A stretch of 64,000 nucleotides of DNA from Candidatus Bathyarchaeota archaeon (GTDB lineage: Archaea > Thermoproteota > Bathyarchaeia > Bathyarchaeales > Bathycorpusculaceae): positions 1-64,000 of the forward strand of contig CAWDYC010000003.1 of the NCBI GenBank assembly GCA_963806535.1, given 5' to 3'. Shown here in pieces: positions 16,403 through 59,938 of this stretch. Position 1 is the stretch's first letter. Every line of letters begins with the position of its first letter. The notes below the pieces were generated by a model, which searched no databases, had not been told where the DNA came from, and was given only the letters and a program-made list of their open reading frames with translations. Both the position numbers and the translations under genes were made by a program.

Positions 16403-16627
16403 ATGACGATGAAGACGGTTAGCGTAAGAATATCCGACGAAGAAAAGCGCCAATTAAAGAAGTATGGCAGATTATCAGACACCCTAAGGGAAGGCATGAA
16501 ACTCTACCTAAACAAAAAGAAATCCGACGAGTTGCTATGCAAACTGGAAAAAATGCAATCTGAAAGCGAAATAAAAACCTCAATTGAGGAAGAAGTGAAG
16601 CTGATTCGAGAGGATAGAGAACGCTGA
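16403..16627 (+). CDS. vapB: Ribbon-helix-helix antitoxin (VapB-like)
   Basis: TVSVRISDE beta strand, C-terminal LIREDRE; overlaps the downstream PIN gene. Confidence 0.8.
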   Translation: MTMKTVSVRISDEEKRQLKKYGRLSDTLREGMKLYLNKKKSDELLCKLEKMQSESEIKTSIEEEVKLIREDRER

Positions 16628-17001
16628 TAGTTGCCGACAGCAGTTTCATAGTTGAAGGCCTCCTTAAGAAAAAAGAATTACTTGCAAATGACCAGATTGT
16701 GGCTCCTGAGTTAGTTGCCTACGAAGTCACAAACGCCATTTGGAAGCATGAACATCTTTTGAAGGACTTAGAAAACGGTAAACCATACATATCGATTTTC
16801 TACGGTCTAATAGAAGCTGGGAAAATAAGGATCCTAACTCCAAACGAAGAGTTGATGCAGAAATCATATTTGATTGCAAAAAGGCAAGGAATTACAATAT
16901 ACGACGCAGTTTTCGTTTCGCTGGCAATTAAATTAGGACTGCCCTTAAAAAGCTACGATAGAGTTCAAATTCGAGCTCTAGAATCTGAGAATAGCCGCTG
17001 A
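16624..17001 (+). CDS. vapC: PIN-domain toxin (VapC)
   Basis: Frame extends to an overlapping CTG start: IVADSS...APELVAYEVTNAIWK...ITIYDAVFVSLA...SYD. Confidence 0.85.
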   Translation: MIVADSSFIVEGLLKKKELLANDQIVAPELVAYEVTNAIWKHEHLLKDLENGKPYISIFYGLIEAGKIRILTPNEELMQKSYLIAKRQGITIYDAVFVSLAIKLGLPLKSYDRVQIRALESENSR

Positions 17002-17112
17002 AAACTTGCCGCCTTCACTGATACGGCTAAATGCACAGAAGTAGTATTTTTAGCTGATTCAGTAATTATTTATATGGTAGTACCTGTATTCATTACTTGA
17101 GAGAATATTAAG

Positions 17113-17340
17113 TTGCAGAAAACAGTAAAAGTTACCAGAAAAGGACAAACAACTATACCTGCCAGAATCAGAGAAGAACTGGGAATAAAAGAGGGAGACG
17201 ACTTGTCAGTCGAAGCTGTTGACCAAGCAGTGATCTTCAAACGCATACCCAAAATAGAGGATTGTGCAGGAATCTTTGCCGGTCACGCAGACGTGACAGA
17301 AATGAAAAAGGAAATCGACAAGCTTCGAGAGGAATACTAA
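17113..17340 (+). CDS. AbrB/MazE/SpoVT antitoxin
   Basis: VTRKGQTTIPARIREELGIKEGD. Confidence 0.9.
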   Translation: MQKTVKVTRKGQTTIPARIREELGIKEGDDLSVEAVDQAVIFKRIPKIEDCAGIFAGHADVTEMKKEIDKLREEY

Positions 17341-17343
17341 TCG

Positions 17344-17742
17344 TTGAAGCAAGTGCTTGACAGTCGATTCTTTGTGGAATACTACTATTCCCAAGACCCG
17401 ATCATTCGACAGAAAGTCAATCAGAAAATTAAAGAGCTAACCAAAAATAGTAGCGGCATAATACCAACCATTGTTGTTTGTGAAACAATTCAGCTGATCT
17501 GCTCACGAGAGGGCAAGCAAAAAGCAGAAATGATCTACCTATCAATCATTTCAAGTGGAATAAGAATCGAAAGTCTAAGCCCTTCAATTGCGAAAGAAGC
17601 AGGCATACTAAAAAGCGTATACAAACACATTCCAGTCGGCGACTGCATCATCGCCGCCACAGCAATCAGAAACCAAGCGAGAATACTCTCAGACGATTCG
17701 CACTTCGATGCAATAGAAGAAACAAAACGAATATGGCTTTAG
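17344..17742 (+). CDS. vapC: PIN-domain toxin (VapC)
   Basis: VLDS...E...GDCIIAATA...SDDSHF acidic PIN motifs. Confidence 0.9.
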   Translation: MKQVLDSRFFVEYYYSQDPIIRQKVNQKIKELTKNSSGIIPTIVVCETIQLICSREGKQKAEMIYLSIISSGIRIESLSPSIAKEAGILKSVYKHIPVGDCIIAATAIRNQARILSDDSHFDAIEETKRIWL

Positions 17743-18189
17743 AAGCTAAAGCTTAACAAAGAGACATCTTTCAGGTCATGTTCACACCCTTGAGCTGAAG
17801 AAAAAAAAGGAATTTAGAGTTGGCTGAAGAATTGGAGCAGTTTAGGGCATGGCTTGATTCAGAAGAGCAGAGACAATTCGGCATAAAATACGCAGAACAT
17901 GAAGCAGCCCGTTTCGAGACCGATAAATAGAAAACCAGTGTAACCAAGTGTGCTCCCCTTATTACTCACAATTAAGTAATGAAAAAAACACAAAAAGTCT
18001 ATCCTGTACATCGAAAATGATCGTCGATGGGATTTTAGGAAAGATTTTAATAATTTGTTAGTTTAGGGACATTTAAGATGGTTTTCTTTTTCGGTGGGTA
18101 AATGAGCAAGAAACAATCTAAGAAGCTTAATGTGCTTGTGAATAAAAGCCAGCCTTCTGAGCAAATGCTGCCGCGAAGAGCTTGCTCAA

Positions 18190-19531
18190 TTGATTCTTTC
18201 GCCGTTTGTCCACCTGTTCAATATTGATGAATCGACGAAGTGTCTTTTCAATTCTTTAACTCTAAAGAAAGTATACTTAACCAACAAAAAGTACGAAAAG
18301 GTTTTAGCAGATCTAAGTAAAGGCGAGCGCAGTAAGGACGTCAAAGAGTTAATTGAACTAAAATTTGTGGTGCCTCAGGGGTTTGATGAGGAAAAAGTGT
18401 TTGATACTGTTGCAAGCAGCTTGCTTAGAAAAAAACCACAAACCAACCTTGCCTACATTTTGGTGACTGACTTCTGCAATTTCAGATGCGGCTACTGCTT
18501 TATCGAAAACAATCTAAAAGGACCAAGTACCGCGATGTCTAAGGATTTGGCTGACAAAGTCATAAACGTCCTAATCAACGAGGCAAAGCAAGTTCCAGAA
18601 TTCAGGGTCACATTTTATGGGGGAGAGCCGTTTAGCAATAGCGAAATTGTTTTCTACATTATTGAGAAGCTTGAACAGGCATCTAAGAAATTCTTGTTTT
18701 CCTGCGTCACAAATGGAAGCCTAATAACCGAAGACATAGCTAAAAAACTTAAACAACACAACGTTGCCGTAGGATTATCGCTTGACGGATGGGCTAACAT
18801 TGACAAAAACCGTGTTTTCACTGATGGAAAAGAAACCTTTTACTCAGCACTCAAAGCCTTAGCTATTCTAAAAGAAGCAGGCGTAAACACAGGAATATCG
18901 TGCACAATCACAAAACAGAACTATGAGCACGCAGAAGAAATAGTAGAATTTATCCAGAAACTGGGAGTCAGAACCATAGGCTTCAACTTGTTGACCAGAC
19001 TTAAAGAGCCAAGCAAATTTGAGGTGCCTGATCCCAAAACAACTTGCCCATCATCTTTTTGCAGCTTACTTAAAAGCAAAAGAATTGCACATGTTTGAAG
19101 ATCGCATTGATAATCGGCGAGCAAATTATTTTTTCAAAGAAATATTTCATATTTACGATTGCCCCGCGTTTGGTCAACTACTATTTTTTTCGCCAACCGG
19201 AACAGTAGGACCTTGCCACGCGTTCTATCCGTCGGGGAAATATCAAATTCCAATCAAAGAGGATTTGAAAATTCAAGAAGAACCATTGTTTTACAAATGG
19301 CTGGAAATAGGCACTCTAAAAAATAAAGACTGTATGAGGTGTCCTGCGATTGGAATTTGCGGTGGAGGATGCGCTTACGATATCTATGTTAAAACTGGTC
19401 AACTTGGCATAAAAGAAGACTACTTCTGCACTTTTCAAAATGAAATACTAAAGCTCCTAATTTCATACAATTTCCTGCTGGAATCTCAAAATAAACATTG
19501 CAAAAACCAAAAGTTGAAGAATTTGTCCTAA
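18190..19531 (+). CDS. Radical SAM/SPASM peptide maturase-like enzyme (+1 frameshift near 19035-19040, likely a sequencing error)
   Basis: CNFRCGYC, YGGEP, SLDG in 18190-19098. The SPASM Cys array (CPAFG, GPCH, CMRCPAIGICGGGC, C) lies in the overlapping 19019-19531 frame. ~80-aa N-terminal extension. Confidence 0.9.
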
Positions 19532-19598
19532 TAATCCAGCCCCAGATTTACTTTACAATAAACATTAAATAAAACGACTTAATACATCAATGTAGTGA

Positions 19599-20021
19599 TT
19601 GTTTTTGTCAAAAAATAAATCTACACCTAACTCTTCCTCAAAAAAACCAACTACTGCTCCATCAGCAAAAAAATTGACTCCAGCACAAAAGAAACGTTTA
19701 CAGAAAACTTTGGCAAAAATGCCACCTATTGAAAAACTGGATCCTAAAATGTATGCAAAACTGCAGTCAACAATACGTGATGCCGTAGCAAAAACTTTAC
19801 CGGAATATCAGCAATGGGTAAATTCTTCATTGATAGCAGCCGATGATTGCCCGACAGAACTCTGTAGTTCATGCGGCAACCAATGTCCAGCAGAATTGTG
19901 CAGTGCATGCAGCAACCAATGTCCCACACCAATTAAAAGCATTGATGACATTGTCGTGAATGCTGTCAACGAGGCTATGATGGGAGCAATTCGTCAAGCT
20001 TTGAAAGAGCAGTTCAAATAA
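19599..20021 (+). CDS. Candidate RiPP precursor A with internal 7-Cys repeat core
   Basis: DDCPTELCSSCGNQCPAELCSACSNQCPTP between helical segments; paralogue of 21829-22230; lies between two radical SAM genes. Confidence 0.75.
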   Translation: MFLSKNKSTPNSSSKKPTTAPSAKKLTPAQKKRLQKTLAKMPPIEKLDPKMYAKLQSTIRDAVAKTLPEYQQWVNSSLIAADDCPTELCSSCGNQCPAELCSACSNQCPTPIKSIDDIVVNAVNEAMMGAIRQALKEQFK

Positions 20022-20143
20022 GAAGCAGCTTTGCGGTTCAGAAACCGAACGCTATCAACTGAAAAATAGTTCGCCTATTTACGCCATAAAGGTAGTAGCA
20101 TACCATAAAAACCAATGCCTATAGACAGTTCAGATGATCTAAA

Positions 20144-21733
20144 TTGTCTGTTTTTCTTTGCATTCCGCCAGTTTCTTCTTTAGTTCCATATCCTGCAATT
20201 CCATACTTAACAAGCAGCCTGAGAGCAAATAATCAAAAGGTAAGTACCTTTGATCTAAACATAAAAGCTTTTAACCTAACTCTTTTCCATCAGAGAATAG
20301 ATATCAAACCCGGAGAAATTCTAAGTAAAAGTAACAACACGAAAAGGGCAAAATGGAAAAGAGTTCCTAAAGCAGAGATTTATTCGACCATGCGAGAAGG
20401 CCAAGAAATTTTTGAAGAAATAATGTTACAAGAGGCTTATGATCAATTAGGCTATAACATCTCAAACTTAATGTTCAAAGATATTATCAGCGAAGAATCA
20501 AAGCAGGCAACGTTGTCGGATGTTTGGAAAATTTGTAATGATTGGTTTTTAGAAGTTGCCCACGATTCCAAAGAGCAAAATATAGTGGGATTTCATGTAA
20601 TAAGCCATACTGGTTTGATGTGGAGCATACTTCTGGCACGTAAATTAAAGAAAATTCAGCCCAGAATTTTGACAGTTTTGGGCGGTCCAGCATTCCTCTC
20701 AGCGCAAGAAGTTCTGTCTGTCAATTCAGAAATTGACGTAATAGTTCGAGGGGAGGGCGAGGTCACGATTTCTGAGATAGCTAATTCTTATGACGGTAGT
20801 TTGGAATCAATAAAGGGAATCGATGGAATTTCCTACAGAAATGGTAAAAACGGAATTGTTTCCAATGCTGATCGACAGTTGATTAAGTCTCTTGATGCTT
20901 TGCCTTTTCCCGATTACGATGATTTACCATTACATGAATATCCTCAGAATAAGTTTGGAATGCCTATAATGCCAGTTGTTGGCTCTAGAGGCTGTATTGG
21001 AGATTGTGTTTTTTGTGTTGAAAAACGTTTATGGGGCAACACGTATCGGATGCGGTCACCAGAAAACATCGTATCGGAAATCAAGAATATCAAAGAAAAA
21101 TACGGAACTTCCATCATTCGATTCAATGACAGCTCGATTAATTGTAACATCAAATCGCTAGAAAAACTCTGCGATTTATTGATTGAAGAGAATATCGGAA
21201 TGCAGTGGACGAGCAACGCCAGAATTCGTCCTGAAATGAACAACAAACTGCTTAGGAAAATGCGGCAAGCGGGTTGTATGGGCTTGTGGTTTGGCATAGA
21301 ATCTGGGTCCCAGAGAATTCTGCGTAAAATGAAAAAAGGGTATGATTTGGAAACTGCTAAAAACGTGATCCACGATACTGCAAAAAATGGCATTCGTGTT
21401 CAGATATTTATGATAGTAGATTTTCCGGGAGAAACTCTCAGCGATTTTAACAAGTCTGTTGCTTTCTTAGAGCAAAACCACCAATTTATTGATCAAGTCA
21501 GCGTTTCACGTTTTGGGGTTTTGCCTGATTCAGAAATTTCTCATAACCCCCAAGAATATGGAATTGAGCTGATCAAAGGAAAAACAGGGGTTAATTACAG
21601 TTATTTGTATTCGCCTACGCCCGATAGCTACCGATATGAAAATCTCCGTTCGGTTTGGAACCGCTTAAGCATGGAAAAAACAGCAGGCTCAAAAAGGAAT
21701 TATCTTCCAAAAATAATTGTTCCATATTACTAA
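20144..21733 (+). CDS. Cobalamin-binding radical SAM protein (class B methyltransferase-like)
   Basis: B12-binding domain (VLGGP, VIVRGEGE, LPFPDY), SRGCIGDCVFC, GIESGSQRILRKMKKG, FPGET. Confidence 0.92.
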   Translation: MSVFLCIPPVSSLVPYPAIPYLTSSLRANNQKVSTFDLNIKAFNLTLFHQRIDIKPGEILSKSNNTKRAKWKRVPKAEIYSTMREGQEIFEEIMLQEAYDQLGYNISNLMFKDIISEESKQATLSDVWKICNDWFLEVAHDSKEQNIVGFHVISHTGLMWSILLARKLKKIQPRILTVLGGPAFLSAQEVLSVNSEIDVIVRGEGEVTISEIANSYDGSLESIKGIDGISYRNGKNGIVSNADRQLIKSLDALPFPDYDDLPLHEYPQNKFGMPIMPVVGSRGCIGDCVFCVEKRLWGNTYRMRSPENIVSEIKNIKEKYGTSIIRFNDSSINCNIKSLEKLCDLLIEENIGMQWTSNARIRPEMNNKLLRKMRQAGCMGLWFGIESGSQRILRKMKKGYDLETAKNVIHDTAKNGIRVQIFMIVDFPGETLSDFNKSVAFLEQNHQFIDQVSVSRFGVLPDSEISHNPQEYGIELIKGKTGVNYSYLYSPTPDSYRYENLRSVWNRLSMEKTAGSKRNYLPKIIVPYY

Positions 21734-21784
21734 AAGTTTACTTTCAAGAAAACGTCTCCTAGCTAAGTCTTAATGTTAATCACT

Positions 21785-21850
21785 AAACCCATAAATATTA
21801 TCTTGAGAGATCATAAAGAGAGCAGTGATTGTTTTTGTCAAAAAATAAAT
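21785..21850 (+). promoter_or_regulatory. Duplicated upstream/promoter block (ccataaatattatcttgagagatcataaa), partner 22358-22423
   Basis: Same block directly upstream of precursor B and of the methyltransferase; contains an AT-rich TATA-like ATAAATATT. Confidence 0.6.
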
Positions 21851-22230
21851 TTACACCTAACTCTTCCACAAAAAACCTGACCCCAGCACAAAAGAAACGT
21901 TTAGAGAAAACCTTGGCACAAATGCCACCTATTGAAAAACTGGATCCTGCAGTTTATGCAAAGCTACAGTCATCGATACGTGATGCCGTGGCAAAAACTT
22001 TGCCAGAATATCAGAAGTGGGTAAATTCTTCTTTGATAGCAGCCGATGATTGCCCCCCGCCGGCACCTGTGTGTAGTTCTTGTGGCAACGATTGCCCCAC
22101 GCAGCTTTGTAGTTCATGTGGAAACGACTGCCCAACGCCAAATAGAAAACTGGACGATATGGTTGTTAATGCGGTAAACGAGGCTATAACGGGAGCAATT
22201 CGTCAAGCTTTGAAAGGTCAGTTCAAATAA
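21829..22230 (+). CDS. Candidate RiPP precursor B with internal 7-Cys repeat core
   Basis: DDCPPPAPVCSSCGNDCPTQLCSSCGNDCPTP; leader and follower highly similar to precursor A. Confidence 0.75.
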   Translation: MFLSKNKFTPNSSTKNLTPAQKKRLEKTLAQMPPIEKLDPAVYAKLQSSIRDAVAKTLPEYQKWVNSSLIAADDCPPPAPVCSSCGNDCPTQLCSSCGNDCPTPNRKLDDMVVNAVNEAITGAIRQALKGQFK

Positions 22231-22406
22231 GAGCGGTCAGAAACTAACATTCTCAAAAAATAGTTCACAGAATTACGCCACAAAAAGTAGCAGGTGCTAT
22301 AAAAAAATTGTCCTATGATTACACAAATTTATTTTCAAGAGTCTGTATGCCTTCAAAAAACCATAAATATTATCTTGAGAGATCATAAATAGAGCAGCGA
22401 TTATTT

Positions 22407-23511
22407 TTGCCAAAAAATAAACCAACAACCAAAACCCTCTCTAAAAAACCTACAAAAACCAAAAAGCAAAATCAACACCTGAACGCACCTTCGGAAAAAG
22501 ATCCTCATTTTGAAAAGTTGGATCCAGAAATTTATGCAAAACTGCAATCAACTATCCATGAAGTCATAGAAAAAACGTTGCCAGAGTACAAAGAATGGCT
22601 AAACTCTGCATTTGGCGAAAAAATCATAGGCAATGATTGTTCAAATGAATCCTTGCAGAACATCGACAAGATTGTGGTTTCGGCTGTCAACAAAGCAATG
22701 AAAACAGCAATTCCTCAAGCTTTGAAGGAATATGATGAGCAGCAGGGAATTATGGAAAAATGGTTTAAAATGAAATTTTATGATGACGTTTCAGACATAA
22801 GACCTGAAAGCCGAGCTTACTACAAATATTGTGTAGAAAATTTTGTTACACAATTTTTTACCAGAGAAAAAATATCTGGAAAGAAAATCCTCGATTTTGG
22901 ATGTGGACCAGGATATTTTTCCACGATTTTAGCCCAAACGTGGAGCACACATAACTGGAATTGACAGAAGTGCATTTCTGATTTCGAAAGCAAACGAACT
23001 CAAGCAAAGACTAGAACTTGAAAATGTAGAGTTTTTGCAGGGGGATTTTCTTGATTTTGCAAAAAATATGCCCTCTGAAAAGTTTGACTACATTGTCGCG
23101 ATAGATACGATTGTGAGTTTTGACTATTGTAGACAAACGCATAATCATAAGGATTTCATCCAGGCTTTAAGCGAAATTAGAAGAGTTATGAAAGATGAGG
23201 GTAGATTTTTTATTATTGAGGCGCATCCGTTTTTTGGTCAACTTGCGAAAGGAATAACTTTCTCAAAGGAAGGACATTTTCATGGTCGTTTACCTAATTA
23301 TAAAATAGAGTATAAGGCTAAGGATAATCCGCATCATTGGTTTACCCTTGATGAAATGACGAGTGCTCTTAGCGAGAACTGTTTGGCTATTTGCAGGATT
23401 TATGAGCCTGATCCAAGTGTTGAATTGGAAAAAGAAAATCCTCATTTGTACAGGTTTTACTTGAAGTATCCGCATTTGATTGTATATGAAATATGCAAAG
23501 TGAAAATCTAA
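22407..23511 (+). CDS. Class I SAM-dependent methyltransferase fused to a precursor-like leader/follower scaffold (frameshift near 22935)
   Basis: N-terminal EKLDPEIYAKLQSTI...KTLPEYKEWLNS...IDKIVVSAVNKAMKTAIPQALKE. ILDFGCGPG (motif I) continues after a one-base shift as RGAHITGID...LQGDF...FDYIVA...GRFFIIEAHP. Confidence 0.85.
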
Positions 23512-24047: not shown

Positions 24048-26249
24048 ATGGTTCAGAAAGAAGTCTTGAAGAAAACTAGAACTTATGGTTTAATTGCATT
24101 ACTTTTAGCTATAGTCCTTGTGGCGATGATTTATGCTTATGGAAATACAGGGATTTCTCCTGGAGCACCTCAGCAACCAGGGTCGTCTCAGGGAACATTG
24201 GCTCAGGGGAATTTGGGAACACAAACGGTTGGAACACAAACATCTTTGCAAACTTTTACTTCAATTAATGAACTCAAAAACTTCCTAAACCAAAGCAGCG
24301 GCTCAAACCCGTATAGGTATGCCTTCAACAACGCAGGCACTTATAACGAGTTAGCTCCCATGCCGGTACCCTCAACAGCACCTTCGGCGGCATCTTTAAC
24401 TGCGCAAAGCGCTTCAAATGACTATTCAACAACTAATATCCAAGTTGCCGGCGTCGATGAAGCAGACAAAGTGAAAACCGATGGGCAATACATCTACGTC
24501 ATAGGCAACAATAGCCAAGCTGTTTACATTTTAGATGCCAGCTCTCAAAACCCACAAAACGCCAAAGTTCTTAGCAAAATATTATTTGATAACGGTTATC
24601 CGCAGGGAATTTATCTTAGCGCAGACGGCAACAAACTCGCTGTTCTAGGAAGCAACAATGTACCTTATCAGGTTTATGGGAGGGTTCTTGGGTTATATCC
24701 GGCCAACATGATGTTTCCCAGTTGGACTGCCAGCACAAACTTCGTCTACGTTTATGATGTCTCAAACAAAGCTAATCCGGTACTTTCACGGAACTTCACG
24801 ATGAGCGGCAGCTACGTTAACAGTCGAATGATTGGTAATTATGTTTATGACATAATCTCAGAAAACTCTTATCTTTTAAATGGAACCGTTTTGCTTCCCA
24901 CAGTTTTTTCTGGTCAGCAACCCTCCGCCGTATCGCCCACAAGCATCTACTATGTTAACAATTCGGACGCAAGCTACATGTACACAACCATAGTTGCCTT
25001 AAACATCGAAAACAGTCAGGAACAAGGAGTAAGCACAACTGTCCTTATGGGCAACGCAGGAACAATATACGTTTCCCAAAGCAACATCTACCTAACTGAC
25101 CAAGTAACCACCTATCAACCCGTAAAAACACCTTTAGCCACGCCGTCTCAAACTGGCACAACTATTATGCCAATGCCAATCATTCCCGTGCAGCTTTATT
25201 GGCAGGGAACCGCCATTTACCGCATACAAATCTCAGGGCCATCTCTTACGCTTGCCGCTTCAGGAAACGTTACAGGCACCGTTATGAGCCAGTACTCGAT
25301 GGATGAATACAACGGGTACTTCCGCATAGCCACTAGCTCCTCCGATTACTCCCAAACCAGCTATTCGTCTACGCAACAGAATAACCTGTACATATTAGAC
25401 TCGAATCTGAAGGTCGTGGGAAAAATCGAAAACTTAGCCAGCGGAGAAGAACTGCATTCCGCCCGATTTATAGCTGACCGATGCTACTTAGTCACCTTCA
25501 ACCAAATTGACCCCCTGTTTGTCCTCGACTTAACTCAACCCACAAACCCCATGGTCCTTGGCAACCTAACAATACCTGGATACTCAGATTTCCTGCAGCC
25601 CTACGACGCAACACATCTGATCGGAATCGGTCAAGATGTAAATGCCAGCATTGATGCAAACAAAGTGGAAACTCCAGGTGACGTATATTACACCGCTGTT
25701 TTAGGCTTGAAAGTATCCCTATTCGACGTTAGTAACGTTGCAAACCCGAAGGAAACTTCAAGCATCGTCATAGGCGACAGCGGAACAACTTCAGAAGCCC
25801 TCACTGACCCTAAAGCCATCCTCTTCGATGCATCCAAAAACCTCCTAGTCTTGCCAATTGAACTGTACCTATCAACCAACAGCACGGCAACAACATCGCC
25901 GGGCGCCACAGGTACCGCAGGTAATGGAATAGCCGTTCCAGCCCCCGCGCCAATGATCCCAACAAACACTTATTATCCCCAGTTCGCATGGCAGGGAATA
26001 TACGTATTCAACGTTGACCTCACAAACGGCATCACAATTAAAGGCAACATAACACAGTTAGACAATGCATCAACATATCTCGCCAACCCGTCCCTTGCAA
26101 CAACAGGGTCATACCCGTGGGGAGAAAGCCAATACTTCATTGACCGCTCACTGTACATCGGCAATGTCCTATACACTGTCAGCCAAAGCAGAGTGCAACT
26201 AAACAGTCTAGGCAACTTCACCCTACTAGCTAAAGTAGATCTAAATTAA
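24048..26249 (+). CDS. Membrane-anchored secreted beta-propeller domain protein (Beta_propel family)
   Basis: N-terminal TM helix; YSTTNIQVAGVDEADKVKTDG, SMDEYNGYFRIAT, IDPLFVLDL, IPGYSDFLQP. Confidence 0.9.
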   Translation: MVQKEVLKKTRTYGLIALLLAIVLVAMIYAYGNTGISPGAPQQPGSSQGTLAQGNLGTQTVGTQTSLQTFTSINELKNFLNQSSGSNPYRYAFNNAGTYNELAPMPVPSTAPSAASLTAQSASNDYSTTNIQVAGVDEADKVKTDGQYIYVIGNNSQAVYILDASSQNPQNAKVLSKILFDNGYPQGIYLSADGNKLAVLGSNNVPYQVYGRVLGLYPANMMFPSWTASTNFVYVYDVSNKANPVLSRNFTMSGSYVNSRMIGNYVYDIISENSYLLNGTVLLPTVFSGQQPSAVSPTSIYYVNNSDASYMYTTIVALNIENSQEQGVSTTVLMGNAGTIYVSQSNIYLTDQVTTYQPVKTPLATPSQTGTTIMPMPIIPVQLYWQGTAIYRIQISGPSLTLAASGNVTGTVMSQYSMDEYNGYFRIATSSSDYSQTSYSSTQQNNLYILDSNLKVVGKIENLASGEELHSARFIADRCYLVTFNQIDPLFVLDLTQPTNPMVLGNLTIPGYSDFLQPYDATHLIGIGQDVNASIDANKVETPGDVYYTAVLGLKVSLFDVSNVANPKETSSIVIGDSGTTSEALTDPKAILFDASKNLLVLPIELYLSTNSTATTSPGATGTAGNGIAVPAPAPMIPTNTYYPQFAWQGIYVFNVDLTNGITIKGNITQLDNASTYLANPSLATTGSYPWGESQYFIDRSLYIGNVLYTVSQSRVQLNSLGNFTLLAKVDLN

Positions 26250-34441: not shown

Positions 34442-34820
34442 TTAACCTCTTGACCCTGTTTTCAATGTCATCTCTGATTTCTCGGACTTTTTCTATTGGC
34501 TTTCCTTTCGGATCTTCAAGTTTCCAATCGATTGTTGGTTTAAAGAAGGGTCCAGGGCATATTCCTTGATCGTTGCAGCCCATTGTGACAATTAGGTCTG
34601 AATCCTGAGCCATCTGGAAAGTAAGCAATTTCGGCTTATTTGCAGAAATATCAATGCCTTTTTCTTTCATGACTTCCACAACCACAGGGTTAACTGTTTC
34701 CGCAGGCTTGTTGCCAGCACTAAAAATAACAAACTTATCTTTTCCGTACTTGTTGGCGAAAGCCTCTGCCATTTGGCTTCTGCCCGCATTCTCTACACAG
34801 ACAAACAGTATTTTTTTCAT
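34425..34820 (-). CDS. arsC: Arsenate reductase, LMW-PTP type
   Basis: [20 protein letters not shown]. Confidence 0.92.
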
Positions 34821-35903
34821 GCTTCATCCTCCTTATCTTTATAGTATTTCTTTCTTATCCAGAGGGCCACATTCACTAAACTTATCATGACTGGTACTTC
34901 TATTAATGGTCCTATAACTGCTGCGAAGGCTTCCTGTGAAGCTAAACCGAAAACCGCGACGGCTACGGCTATGGCTAATTCAAAGTTATTGCTGGCTGCG
35001 GTAAAAGAGAGCGAGGTTGTTCTTTTGTAACCCAGTTTAGAATAGTACCCTATGGCGAATGCCACCGAGAACATTATTATGAAGTAGACTAAAAGCGGAA
35101 TGGCAACTCTGACAACATCCAACGGCAAACTTACAATGTACTGTCCTTTGAGCGAAAACATAACAACAATAGTGAATAGCAATGCTATGAGTGACACGTG
35201 GCTTAGTTTATGCATTAGTTTGTGTTCGTACCATTCCTTGCCTTTGGTTTTTAGGAAGTAGTATCTGGTTATGATTCCGGCGAAGAATGGGATGCCTAAG
35301 TAAATCGCCACTGATTGTGCAACTTGTATTATGGAAATGTTTACGATTTGTCCTGAGCCTGAAATCCAACGAGCTGGCTATGGTTATGTAAAAGTATGCA
35401 AGAACCGAGTACATTACTATCTGAAAGATGGAGTTAACTGCAACTAGTATGGCTGTCCATTCGTTGTCGCCTTCTGCAAGGTTATTCCATACGATAACCA
35501 TAGCGATACATCGTGCTATGCCGATGAGTATTATGCCGTTTCTGAGGTCAGGATAGGCACCAAGGAATACCCAAGCTAAAACAAACATCAACAAAGGTCC
35601 AATTACCCAGTTAAGAGTAAGCGACTCCGTGAGCATTGTCTTTGAACCTTTGGAAGTTACCACTTTTTTTAGATCTTCGTATCGTACTCTTGCAAGCGGA
35701 GGATACATCATCAAAATCAAGCCTACAGCTATAGGAATTGAGGTGGTTCCAATACTCAAAGAGCCTATGTCACTGGATATCTTAGGATAGATGTAGCCTA
35801 TTGCAACCCCAATGGCCATTGCTAAGAATATCCAGACTGTGAGAAACTTGCTCAACAACGAGAGATGAGGCTTAGGCTTATCAGGTTTAGAAGGGATACA
35901 CAT
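34817..35903 (-). CDS. acr3: ACR3 arsenite efflux transporter (frameshift near 35370)
   Basis: [40 protein letters not shown] over two frames. Confidence 0.92.
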
Positions 35904-54227: not shown

Positions 54228-56178
54228 TTATATAAACAGTAGCCAGGCGACGAAGATAGCTAAGGTAGCGATGAAGAGACCTGCCCAAAGACTTTTGCTA
54301 TGCTTGAAAATGTCTTTTCCACTCATCGGCGAAACGGGGAATGTGCCGAAGAAGGAACCGATTACGCACATTGATAATCCTGCATCTCCAACAGCGGTAT
54401 ATCCTCCTTTTAACAGTAGGAAGAATAGTCCTGCGAAAGCTAAGCTGATAAGGATTTCAGATGTTGCTACTATAGCTCCTAATCGTTCAGTGAATTTTTT
54501 GGAGTGTGTGCTTCGTGTTGGTGAGGAAAATGGAACTCTGAAGGCAAAGGTGGTGAAGAGGAAAAGGATAAGTCCCAAAGGCCAAATCGAGTGTTCACTC
54601 CACACGCCTTTGCTTCGCAAGTAAGCTATGGATACGAACTTTTGTATGAACCCAACGATCACGCTTGTTAGAATGAACACGGGTAGCAGAGCCCAAATTT
54701 GGCTAAGAGTGATAACTTTAACGTAGGCGAAGGAAATTCCAAGAACAACTATTGCAACGATGTAAGCTAGAACTTCTGTCCCTGTTGGCTTAAAAAGCGA
54801 GCCTACTTTTTCGGCAGCTTCAGCTTCGCGTCTGGATGAGATTACTTCTTCAAGCCACTCCTTTAAATTATCCGGGATTAGACCTTTTGCTTTTTCCTCA
54901 GGTGCTCCACCCTCTTTTGCTAAGGGGTTACTTATTGCAGAAAGAATTGCAGCGAATACTGCTATTACAGCAGCTGATACACCAACGGCTACAGCTGTAT
55001 TTGTCTGGTTTAGGAACCCAGACCTGTTGAAGAAGATCTGACCCAGATGATGGAGTTGATGATCGAGTCGGACTTGTTGATGGGGATGCAGATGATGACG
55101 GGGACGAGGAAGCCCCAGGATTTGGAGAAGCAGAAGTGCTTGGGCTTGGCGATGCAGACGAGCTAGAAGAATCCGGTATAACAGAGACTGTGTTGTCACC
55201 CATGTTGGTTACTAATATTTCTCCTTTAACAGAATCATAAGCGACGCCTGCTGGGGTGGTTCCTACAGGTATAGTTGCAACAACGGTATTGTTGGTATCT
55301 GAAATTACTGAGACAGAGTTGGACCCGTGATTTGATACGAATATCTCGCCGGTACCTGAATCATAAGCTACGCCGTAGGGAGTGGTTCCAACAGCTATGG
55401 TAGCTACAACGGTATTATTGTTGTCTGATATCACCGAGACTGAATTGAACCCAGAACCATAATTAGCCACGAAGAGCTCACCTTTACTGGAATCATAAGC
55501 TGCACCAGCAGGGGAAGTTCCTACAGTTATGATTGCAGTCACCAGATTGGTTCTGTCATTTATTACCGAAACTGTGTTGTAACCAGAATTGGACACGAAG
55601 ACTTCATTCATTGTTGCATCATAGATTACTTTATTGGGATTTGTTCCGACAGATATGTTTGCGACAACGGTGTTAGAGATGTCTGATATTACTGAGACAT
55701 TGTTGTCTCCGGAATTAACTACGAATATTTCATTTGCGCCAGGATCATAAGCTAGGTTATTTGGGGTTGTTCCGACGGGTATTGTAGTTAGCACACGTCG
55801 GGTGCTGTCGGATATTACTGAGACTGAGTTGGAACCGTGGTTGGTCACGAATATCTCTCCTTTAACAGAATCATAGGCTATACCTGTTGGAGAGGTTCCC
55901 ACAGTTACGGTTGCCAACACAAGTTTAGTGCTGTCTGAAATAACCGTGACTGTATTGTAACCAGAATTAGCTACATATATCTCGCCTTTGCCTTGATCAT
56001 AAGCTACGCCTGTGGGAGAGGTTCCTACGGTTATTGTGTTGGTGACACCGATAGCTCTAACCAAGTTAGCTGCTGAAAAGGCAAAAATTAAAATTAGAAA
56101 TAATCCCAAAAGCTTCCAGACTTTAACATTCATCAACCTTCGCCTTCCTTTCTCCCCAAGCGCTCGCTTTAGTTTCAA
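54228..56178 (-). CDS. YVTN beta-propeller fused through a Ser/Pro linker to a multi-TM C-terminal domain (frameshift near 55030)
   Basis: Seven P.G.AYD...IFV.N repeats, S/P linker, then a TM-rich frame at 54228-55030. Confidence 0.8.
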
Positions 56179-58614: not shown

Positions 58615-59938
58615 TTATTTTTTGGAGAAGGTTCTTGCATTTCTTATTCGAACTTGTCCATGTTTGTATCTCAAAAGAGCGGCAAAGCCTCCTAAAGCTG
58701 TAAGCTTCGCTTTTTCCTCTGATTCTGGAGATATTACCTCAACTCTTGCATTTGTTTGTGAAGCACCATCTTCCAAGACATCTATTATATCCTTCTCGTC
58801 AACTTCATATTCAACTGCGCCGCACCTTTCACAGGGGATCGATATCATTTCCTGGATTGTTTGAACCTTTTGCCCCTTTATCACTATCTTCGTCTTGGAT
58901 AAAGAACATTTTTTGCACATTGCAACAATTTCAATCATATCAGTGGTATCTGTAACTAATGCAATTTCCACTTCACCGGTCTTAAGCGATTTCAAAACTG
59001 AATCTAATCCGTAGAGTAGCCAAACCATTTTGCTTGGCGATATCTGATAGAAGGCGCTGAACAACACTTTTCTGTTCTGGCAAACACATATTCTTCAGTG
59101 AATCAAATGATTTGTCAAGCACCTCTCTTACTCCTTCTCTGCCAGCGGATTGTGTATCCACTTTGCCCAGAAACACATTTTTTAGCTCATAGTGAAGAAA
59201 ATCGCCGTTTAAAAAATCCTCTTTTGTTGTACCTGGTCCTCCAACGAGCAACACGTTAACTTTATGGTTCTCGAGAAATGCTTTGGCTGCATGTTCTGCA
59301 ACTCTATGGAAATAGTGTGTGAGTTCCGTGTCGCGTTCTCTTTCATATCTTCTTTGGCTTGACCCACCTTTTCCAGATTTTCCATGAATTCCAGAGGTGA
59401 TATTTTCTATGAATTCGAATCGTTCACCATTAAGCAGACCAAAGCTAGCCTCCTTTGAATCTAAAGCGATTAGACCCACAACTTTTAGGTCTCTAAGCAT
59501 TTCTCTTAGTGGCTCTAACTGGAAATAGTTGTTAACCTCCAACAAAAATGAAGTAATCGGTTCTGGTGGAACTACTTCTTCGACATTTAAAGATGCGTTT
59601 TCCAATTCGTTCGCAACGAAAGTTCCGGCAAATATCGCAATTCCATTCTCTGGAATTTCCCTCAGCAACCTTAAACGCTGAATCACATTCCTGATTGCGT
59701 CTTGATGATGGTCCACACTTTTGGACCTCGTGGCAACAGAATCAGATTCCGCTTTAAGAATTGCGATTACCTCATCTATGGATTTTTCCCGAGGTACGTA
59801 TAGCGAGATAAATTCAATGCCGAGTCCCTCCCTTTCTGATAGCCATGCTATGAGCTTCTTCAGCTTATGCTGTTTCACAGAATTAGTTGTTGCTATTTGG
59901 CACCCGTGAAAATGGGCCGCTGCTTTTTCAGTTACCAA
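58615..59938 (-). CDS. aRF1/eRF1-family paralogue with GGS in place of GGQ (frameshift near 59010)
   Basis: ISLYVP, GKSGKGGSSQRRYERER, VGGPGTTKEDF, YGLDSV, Zn-ribbon CKKC/CERC, GGFAALLRY. Confidence 0.85.

Follow-up and report, generated by a model that had tools for sequence, protein, structure and literature searches.

A genus-restricted radical-SAM gene module of Bathyarchaeia with a previously undescribed family of cysteine-repeat proteins as its putative substrates

The 64,000-nucleotide stretch of DNA analyzed here (hereafter, the window; positions 1 to 64,000 of contig CAWDYC010000003.1 from the Candidatus Bathyarchaeota archaeon assembly GCA_963806535.1) contains, at positions 18102–23511 of the forward strand, five co-directional genes that encode a radical S-adenosylmethionine (SAM) enzyme with a SPASM domain, a small Cys-repeat protein (precursor A), a B12-type radical-SAM enzyme, a second small protein paralogous to the first (precursor B), and a class I SAM-dependent methyltransferase (Table 1). 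This gene order was proposed in a preliminary description of the window made from the letters alone, and the domain assignments obtained with Pfam and NCBIfam bear it out. The cluster is a real, conserved, genus-restricted module of 4–5 genes (about 5.4 kb) that includes a previously undescribed precursor family, and it is best classed as a system of radical-SAM protein modification akin to the pathways for peptides synthesized by ribosomes and modified post-translationally (RiPPs). Judging from the sequences of its components, the module probably modifies whole small proteins, by thioether cross-linking and methylation of their Cys loops; the specific chemistry and the docking idea discussed below are put forward with lower confidence than this general mechanism.

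Table 1. The five genes of the module in the window
Gene	Position	Strand	Size and features
Radical-SAM/SPASM enzyme	18102..19531	+	~471 aa if read through; broken at ~18169 and ~19036
Precursor A	19599..20021	+	140 aa; Lys/Ser-rich tail, three helices, Cys loop with two 12-residue repeats
B12-type (class B) radical-SAM enzyme	20144..21733	+	529 aa, intact
Precursor B	21829..22230	+	133 aa, paralogue of precursor A; shorter tail, two repeats
Class I SAM methyltransferase	22407..23511	+	367 aa in relatives; broken at 22936

Evidence for the module comes from the gene neighborhoods of the precursors. Every place that matches a profile of the precursor scaffold was fetched, which yielded 33 loci in 22 genomes, and the four gene types were mapped in each of these. 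The complete arrangement, that is, SPASM enzyme, precursor, B12 enzyme, an optional second precursor, and methyltransferase, was found in the same order and direction in 22 loci (19 genomes; 8 with two precursors). Two more loci consist of the SPASM, precursor, and methyltransferase genes, and four of the SPASM and precursor genes only, with a partial SPASM gene in one of the four; the other five are orphan precursors, and every genome with such an orphan has a full cluster at another place. The scaffold gene adjoins the SPASM gene in 28 of the 33 loci, so that the co-occurrence with radical-SAM genes, which the preliminary description had proposed as a test, is indeed observed. The precursor genes evolve under purifying selection, with a median dN/dS of 0.295 in 36 pairwise comparisons of nine orthologous 140-aa precursors; by parts, the scaffold has a ratio of 0.27 and the core one of 0.21, whereas the N-terminal tail, at 0.71, evolves almost neutrally. 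The persistence of the gene order across 19 genomes, together with this selection, indicates that the arrangement is beyond chance.

The distribution of the module is narrow and patchy. The scaffold profile matches 22 of the 120 genomes of the Bathyarchaeia genus to which the window belongs, whose members are archaea of peat and soil, and, among the genomes with a completeness of 90% or more and a contamination of 5% or less, 10 of 73. In an even sample of the class, the scaffold was detected in 4 of 401 genomes, all from the same genus; the 360 genomes that represent 130 further genera of the class gave no match, and neither did 24 genomes belonging to other genera of the order. Contigs 88–99% identical to the cluster occur in metagenomes of permafrost and peat as well as in two RNA libraries made from peat; the contigs of the two RNA libraries span most of the cluster, which is a weak hint of its expression given that carry-over of DNA is possible.

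Precursors A and B are 80% identical to each other. For precursor A, AlphaFold2 (AF2) run with the family alignment predicts a three-helix scaffold that would present an exposed Cys loop: the helices at residues 28–39, 49–79, and 115–138 are modeled with a predicted local distance difference test score (pLDDT) above 90, and the loop (residues 81–111, approximately nucleotides 19839–19931) with a pLDDT below 50. The core of the loop consists of 12-residue repeats of the form C-P-x3-C-S-S/A-C-x-N-D/Q, which occur in one to about four tandem copies and are terminated by C-P-T-P; in precursor A, the repeat is underlain by a 36-nucleotide tandem DNA repeat at 19855–19924. The cores in the family contain 4 to 12 cysteines, the number of loop cysteines is 3n+1 with the spacing C-x4-C-x2-C-x3-C-P, and every repeat includes C-x-x-E/Q/P along with C-x-x-D/Q. 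Among the precursors, the putative substrates (133–165 aa), the scaffold is conserved and the core differs in the number and type of repeats; the C-terminal helix is conserved as strongly as the N-terminal one.

A word-indexed protein search retrieved 132 homologues of the precursor at E ≤0.01 among 144 candidates; the 120 homologues listed are 100–163 aa long and nearly all unnamed, but the NCBI source name of one close homologue is Candidatus Bathyarchaeia archaeon, in keeping with the Bathyarchaeia-like host suggested in the preliminary description. When 1.84 billion representative proteins were searched with a profile of the family, just 20 matched at E ≤0.001. Of the 14 that were inspected, three were unrelated repeat proteins and the others belonged to the family, including the methyltransferase fusion discussed below and divergent forms that have different Cys cores and extend further at the C-terminus. 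No Pfam or NCBIfam model, including Fer4 and other metal-binding models, matches the precursors, consistent with the earlier failure to recognize the family; Foldseek comparison of the precursor model with the PDB produced nothing at E ≤0.001 (best E 4.5), and a look-up of precursor A in the ESM Atlas returned no usable match. Similar Lys/Ser-rich tails (of the S-K-K/N-Q/K-S... type) start the SPASM enzyme, both precursors, and the methyltransferase (18102–18190, 19599–19670, and 22407–22500); unlike these other proteins of the cluster, the B12 enzyme has no such tail.

The SPASM enzyme contains the Radical_SAM domain (PF04055, 82.6 bits; cut-off, 29.5) and the SPASM domain (TIGR04085, 46.6 bits; cut-off, 27). 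The three cysteines of the CX3CX2C motif (C96, C100, and C103) and all seven cysteines of the SPASM domain (C324, C342, C381, C384, C390, C394, and C413) are invariant across 14 orthologues. The gene was initially thought to start at 18190, but the actual start is the ATG at 18102: the gene calls in relatives (469–479 aa) open with a 29-residue Lys-rich extension, which the window encodes in a different frame owing to an extra base at about 18169. When both the fragment from the window and an intact orthologue were scored, the enzyme reached the cut-off of no NCBIfam maturase family. Its best matches in NCBIfam are maturases of thioether-containing and Cys-rich peptides, namely, FibroRumin, PapB, CefB, CcpM, and SCIFF: the intact orthologue scores 192.4 bits with FibroRumin TIGR04136, the top family (cut-off, 400), and 150.6 with PapB NF047865 (cut-off, 340), and the score with SCIFF TIGR03974 is 107.8 (cut-off, 425). 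The closest solved structure is that of the SCIFF thioether synthase CteB (5wgg, E 1.3e-26). The maturases of ranthipeptides and sactipeptides (PapB, CteB, FibroRumin) are the best relatives of the SPASM enzyme by both sequence and structure, and they share with it a radical-SAM domain and a SPASM domain with the complete seven-Cys motif, as well as Cys-rich repeat substrates; one difference lies in the substrate, for which the module has, in place of a leader-core peptide, a folded protein about 140 aa long whose core is internal. Several distant relatives of the enzyme (P0195–P0197, P0203, P0205, and P0207; 35–48% identity) carry a C-terminal GNAT acetyltransferase domain; a scan of the genome collection with the GNAT-fused P0203 produced only bacterial radical-SAM genes at 21–28% identity and was uninformative.

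The B12 enzyme aligns with its relatives over residues 1–529 and contains the Radical_SAM domain (72.3 bits); B12-type families spanning the B12-binding domain occur among the 25 NCBIfam matches listed. An N-terminal B12-type domain combined with a radical-SAM core is the layout of the cobalamin-dependent radical-SAM C-methyltransferases (TIGR03975, ApyD, and TIGR04014), although the enzyme falls below the cut-offs of all three families and, like the SPASM enzyme, attains that of no other NCBIfam maturase; neither radical-SAM enzyme thus matches a defined maturase system at its cut-off, an outcome that the preliminary description would have counted against itself only had such a match appeared. 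The best matches are ApyD NF050148 (159.5 bits; cut-off, 750) and TIGR03975, a subfamily of RiPP C-methyltransferases (158.1 bits; cut-off, 281.85), and the score with the methyl-coenzyme M reductase glutamine C-methyltransferase TIGR04014 is 104.3 (cut-off, 360). In the PDB, the relatives are 9ccb_A (6.5e-17) and the cobalamin methylases CysS (9n1b) and TokK (7kdx). Some contigs from public sequencing runs (X2, X16, and X1) fuse the core of precursor A to that of precursor B (19856/22108) or connect the beginning of the B12 gene with sequence upstream of the methyltransferase (20192/22354). These B12-less junctions are natural variants, which probably arose when the two paralogous precursor genes recombined; the B12 gene is also missing from loci L029 and L053. 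Gaps in the cover by some public runs, for example, around 21928–22283 in X2, X15, and X16, were left uninterpreted.

The methyltransferase is identified in an intact orthologue (PF13847, 90.9 bits; cut-off, 27), and the residues of its glycine-rich motif I (D163, G165, G167, and G169) do not vary among 17 orthologues, the open frames of the relatives being 364–410 aa long. The preliminary description overlooked that residues 1 to about 110 of this protein constitute a further scaffold copy, the third in the cluster, which shares 53% identity with precursor A but lacks the Cys repeat: both conserved helices are kept, and a short loop with a single, non-conserved cysteine stands where the repeat would be. 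Because the methyltransferase thus carries the scaffold without the substrate cysteines, we propose that it docks onto its substrate scaffold to scaffold. When the methyltransferase was modeled alone, AF2 predicted a confident Rossmann core and two long N-terminal helices at low confidence. Prediction of the complex with the precursor gave a score of 0.47, compared with 0.00 for the best of three controls, with at least 54% contact agreement between runs and a partner pLDDT of at least 59. Of 80 solved complexes, 58 reached that mark, as did 2 of 110 mismatched pairs; at 0.60 or under, only 7 of the 80 solved complexes reached it, along with both of the passing mismatches. The composite picture, in which the methyltransferase docks homotypically through a degenerate copy of the substrate scaffold and the product is a full-length protein with a thioether-stapled, methylated loop on a helical bundle that acts in or on the cell rather than a secreted peptide, is tentative. 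If correct, it would represent recruitment by substrate mimicry, distinct from the recognition of a leader by a RiPP recognition element (RRE).

The closest characterized system is Crp (CrpA, CrpB, and CrpC) of Methanococcus voltae (PMC13692751). In the Cys-rich CrpA, modifications of −2 Da were mapped to motifs such as CAVD and PCAGD, and C-x-x-Q/D was considered suggestive of radical-SAM thioether formation (PMC13692751). The two systems share an archaeal origin, a SPASM enzyme encoded beside tandem Cys-repeat proteins that are 100 aa or longer and bear C-x-x-D/Q in the repeats, two neighboring proteins with a common conserved N-terminal region, and the modification of a protein rather than a short peptide without a protease or exporter. 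The systems also differ. CrpC belongs to TIGR04463, with which the SPASM enzyme scores 89.2 bits (window fragment) or 93.3 bits (intact orthologue) against a cut-off of 525; the repeats of CrpA are C-terminal, 17 residues long, and tenfold, whereas those in the module number one to four, are 12 residues long, and are located in a loop between two conserved helices; and Crp, as presented there, includes neither a B12 radical-SAM enzyme nor a methyltransferase. The precursors of the two systems are unrelated in sequence, the search with the scaffold profile having found its own family only.

The nearest families of the two radical-SAM enzymes and the C-x-x-D/Q motifs likened to those of Crp suggest a three-step scheme. 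The SPASM enzyme would recognize the conserved scaffold and convert the cysteines of the loop into intramolecular thioether cross-links, the likely form being a ranthionine-type link within Cys-x-x-Asp/Gln/Glu, such as CrpC makes; the B12 enzyme would methylate unactivated carbons of the loop; and the class I methyltransferase, possibly recruited by pairing of the scaffolds, would add a further O-, N-, or S-methyl group. The mature modified protein would then remain with the cell, which is the most likely fate considering that the module encodes no protease or exporter. The B12 and methyltransferase steps are dispensable because there are loci without the respective genes. Two orthologous loci of this kind with only the SPASM and precursor genes (L043 and L050) have a different Cys core that is devoid of D/Q, which is a hint, from one evolutionary event only, that the methylations target the N-D/Q positions.

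In archaea, the formation of thioethers on whole proteins by radical-SAM enzymes was demonstrated only recently (Crp, 2026; PMC13692751). If the proposed mechanism is valid, it would extend such chemistry to a second, unrelated family of substrates, with a new layout in which conserved helices clamp the core loop on both sides, two additional steps of methylation, and a tailoring enzyme that bears a copy of the substrate scaffold. In a literature search covering Bathyarchaeia and archaea, radical SAM, SPASM, ranthipeptides, and thioethers, no description of the cluster was found, although the supplements of PMC13692751, PMC12144867, and PMC13642348 could list it; the search likewise found no description of a B12 enzyme paired with a thioether-type SPASM enzyme and a scaffold-fused methyltransferase. 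The source lineage belongs to the uncultured Bathyarchaeia, for which no paper on such a cluster was found. The compact size of the module and the availability of intact orthologues make a direct co-expression test feasible.

Several observations weigh against this interpretation. The thioethers, the C-methylation, and the atom attacked by the methyltransferase are all deduced rather than observed, and the predicted complex is weak evidence for docking, helical hairpins being readily placed side by side. Two loci have no B12 gene and four have neither the B12 nor the methyltransferase gene. The N-terminus of the SPASM enzyme (residues 1–95, E up to 10) gave no PqqD or credible RRE match in Pfam, the sole suggestion of an RRE being that the maturase models align to the enzyme from model position 1–3 onward; the same search of the N-terminus of the B12 enzyme yielded chance-level matches only. 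The B12-binding domain PF02310 scores 31.5 bits in the B12 enzyme, just under the cut-off of 32.1, and the enzyme matches the hopanoid enzyme HpnJ (156.7 bits) about as well as it does the RiPP methylases. The core is flanked by conserved helices on both sides, which, with no protease encoded nearby, is not the classical RiPP layout, and the spacing C-x2-C-x3-C-P in the loop resembles that of cluster-binding motifs of the ferredoxin type. Finally, 11 of the 22 full clusters contain one or more enzyme genes whose alignment is fragmented, and the check for assembly error covered the window only.

The ferredoxin-like spacing implies that the loop could bind metal instead of, or besides, being cross-linked. 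In the strongest form of this alternative, the Cys-repeat proteins are metal or Fe-S binders (carriers, stores, or small redox proteins) and the radical-SAM enzymes either do not modify them or only tune them. The 3n+1 cysteines with their C-x4-C-x2-C-x3-C-P pattern and the lack of export or cleavage genes nearby are compatible with this possibility, and, according to the Crp report, metal binding is predicted for most of the Cys-rich proteins of archaea, and expression of the crp genes increases on pyrite (PMC13692751). We nevertheless consider it unlikely: metal-binding models fail to match the precursors, a SPASM gene of the peptide-maturase type stands next to the scaffold gene in 28 of the 33 loci, and a repeat number that varies from one to about four, with divergent cores, is unusual for a defined cluster-binding site.

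Much the same low probability is assigned to the opposite view, that the module makes a classical small RiPP or a peptide-derived cofactor, whereby the loop would be excised by a protease encoded elsewhere and then exported or used as a cofactor, with the scaffold serving as leader and follower. SPASM enzymes are also involved in the production of pyrroloquinoline quinone (PQQ) and mycofactocin, the precursors combine a conserved scaffold with a variable core, and orphan precursor copies elsewhere in the genome are typical of RiPPs. However, a leader removed by a protease defines the classical RiPPs, and in the 6 kb flanks of 24 loci, no protease, transporter, or immunity gene recurs. The preliminary description had noted the absence of a transporter and a protease from the cluster itself; the flanks extend this observation, which fits a modified protein better than a secreted peptide. 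Furthermore, the C-terminal helix, which the excision model would treat as a mere follower, is as conserved as the N-terminal one and is retained in the methyltransferase fusion, suggesting that the folded scaffold itself matters.

A third alternative, in which at least one of the radical-SAM enzymes has a substrate other than a protein, such as archaeal tetraether lipids or hopanoid-like molecules, with the Cys-repeat proteins as accessories, draws on the match to HpnJ, on a score of 96.6 bits with the lipid B12/radical-SAM family TIGR04072, and on papers on archaeal radical-SAM enzymes modifying glycerol dialkyl glycerol tetraethers (GDGTs), papers that reportedly mention Bathyarchaeota and SPASM. 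Yet both scores are far below the respective cut-offs (577.6 for HpnJ and 360 for TIGR04072), the B12 gene has a precursor gene on either side within a module of uniform direction, and the best matches of the SPASM enzyme are all peptide maturases; we regard this option as highly improbable. Modification of the Cys-loop proteins themselves remains the preferred explanation.

The cluster in the window is interrupted by three single-base insertions, at about 18169, at about 19036, and at 22936 (an extra A that breaks the methyltransferase gene), rather than the two frameshifts originally reported; each is unique to the window and absent from all 7 aligned relatives. The extra base at 19032/19033 is missing from contigs of relatives in four public sequencing runs, and that at 22936 is missing from contigs in two DNA runs; the source strain itself was not found in the public runs, the highest share of sampled words being 0.29. 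The gene for aRF1 in the same window (58615–59938, minus strand; eRF1 domains 1–3) is likewise split, between residues 313 and 314, by a one-base insertion near 59017, and three relatives have intact frames of 434–445 aa. Because this essential gene is broken in the same manner, the three frameshifts in the cluster, as far as the sequence comparisons indicate, are most likely assembly errors and not signs of gene decay; the assembly consists of 12 contigs. A transporter gene of the SBF (sodium/bile acid symporter) family (34817–35903, minus strand) appears as two overlapping open reading frames (ORFs) that cover profile positions 2–118 and 136–190, which, by its sequence, is probably another frameshift, and two overlapping ORFs of 323 and 416 aa at 54228–56178 (minus strand), the upstream one with matches to NHL-repeat/beta-propeller proteins, are possibly one more frameshifted gene. 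A CCCAAA motif shared by two of the sites was considered as a possible signal of programmed frameshifting and rejected, given that the third site and the aRF1 site do not have it and that the frames of all relatives are uninterrupted there.

The alternative, that the frameshifts are real and the cluster in this genome is a decaying array of pseudogenes, gains some ground from the occurrence of three breaks within 5.4 kb, from the fragmented enzyme genes in half of the full clusters of the relatives, and from the patchy presence of the module within the genus in variable flanks that include transposases. Still, it appears quite unlikely. The aRF1 and SBF genes are broken similarly, the three breaks in the cluster and that in aRF1 are all single-base insertions with no other stops or deletions, the genes are 87–92% identical to intact orthologues, and the precursors evolve with a dN/dS of about 0.3.

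Apart from the five genes, the surroundings of the module are variable. No gene family recurs in more than 4 of the 24 flanked loci; transposases, histidine kinases, and ClpB appear sporadically, and a transposase-like ORF of about 488 aa (family unassigned) is located within 6 kb in four loci (L031, L032, L039, and L041). The conserved gene set without recurrent flanking families shows that the module is self-contained, and the variability of its surroundings is consistent with a location in variable, possibly mobile, regions. In the window, the region directly upstream of the module (16403–17742, plus strand) encodes two VapBC-type toxin-antitoxin-like pairs, one consisting of a small ORF and a PIN domain protein and the other of an AbrB/MazE-type antitoxin and a 132-aa ORF read as PIN-like. 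Neither these pairs nor the gene found downstream of the module, for a PF09826 protein, are present in the first nine loci of the relatives. This downstream gene (24048–26249, plus strand) encodes a 733-aa beta-propeller protein with a hydrophobic N-terminus, and the stretch that it occupies has a GC content of 0.45 compared with about 0.38.

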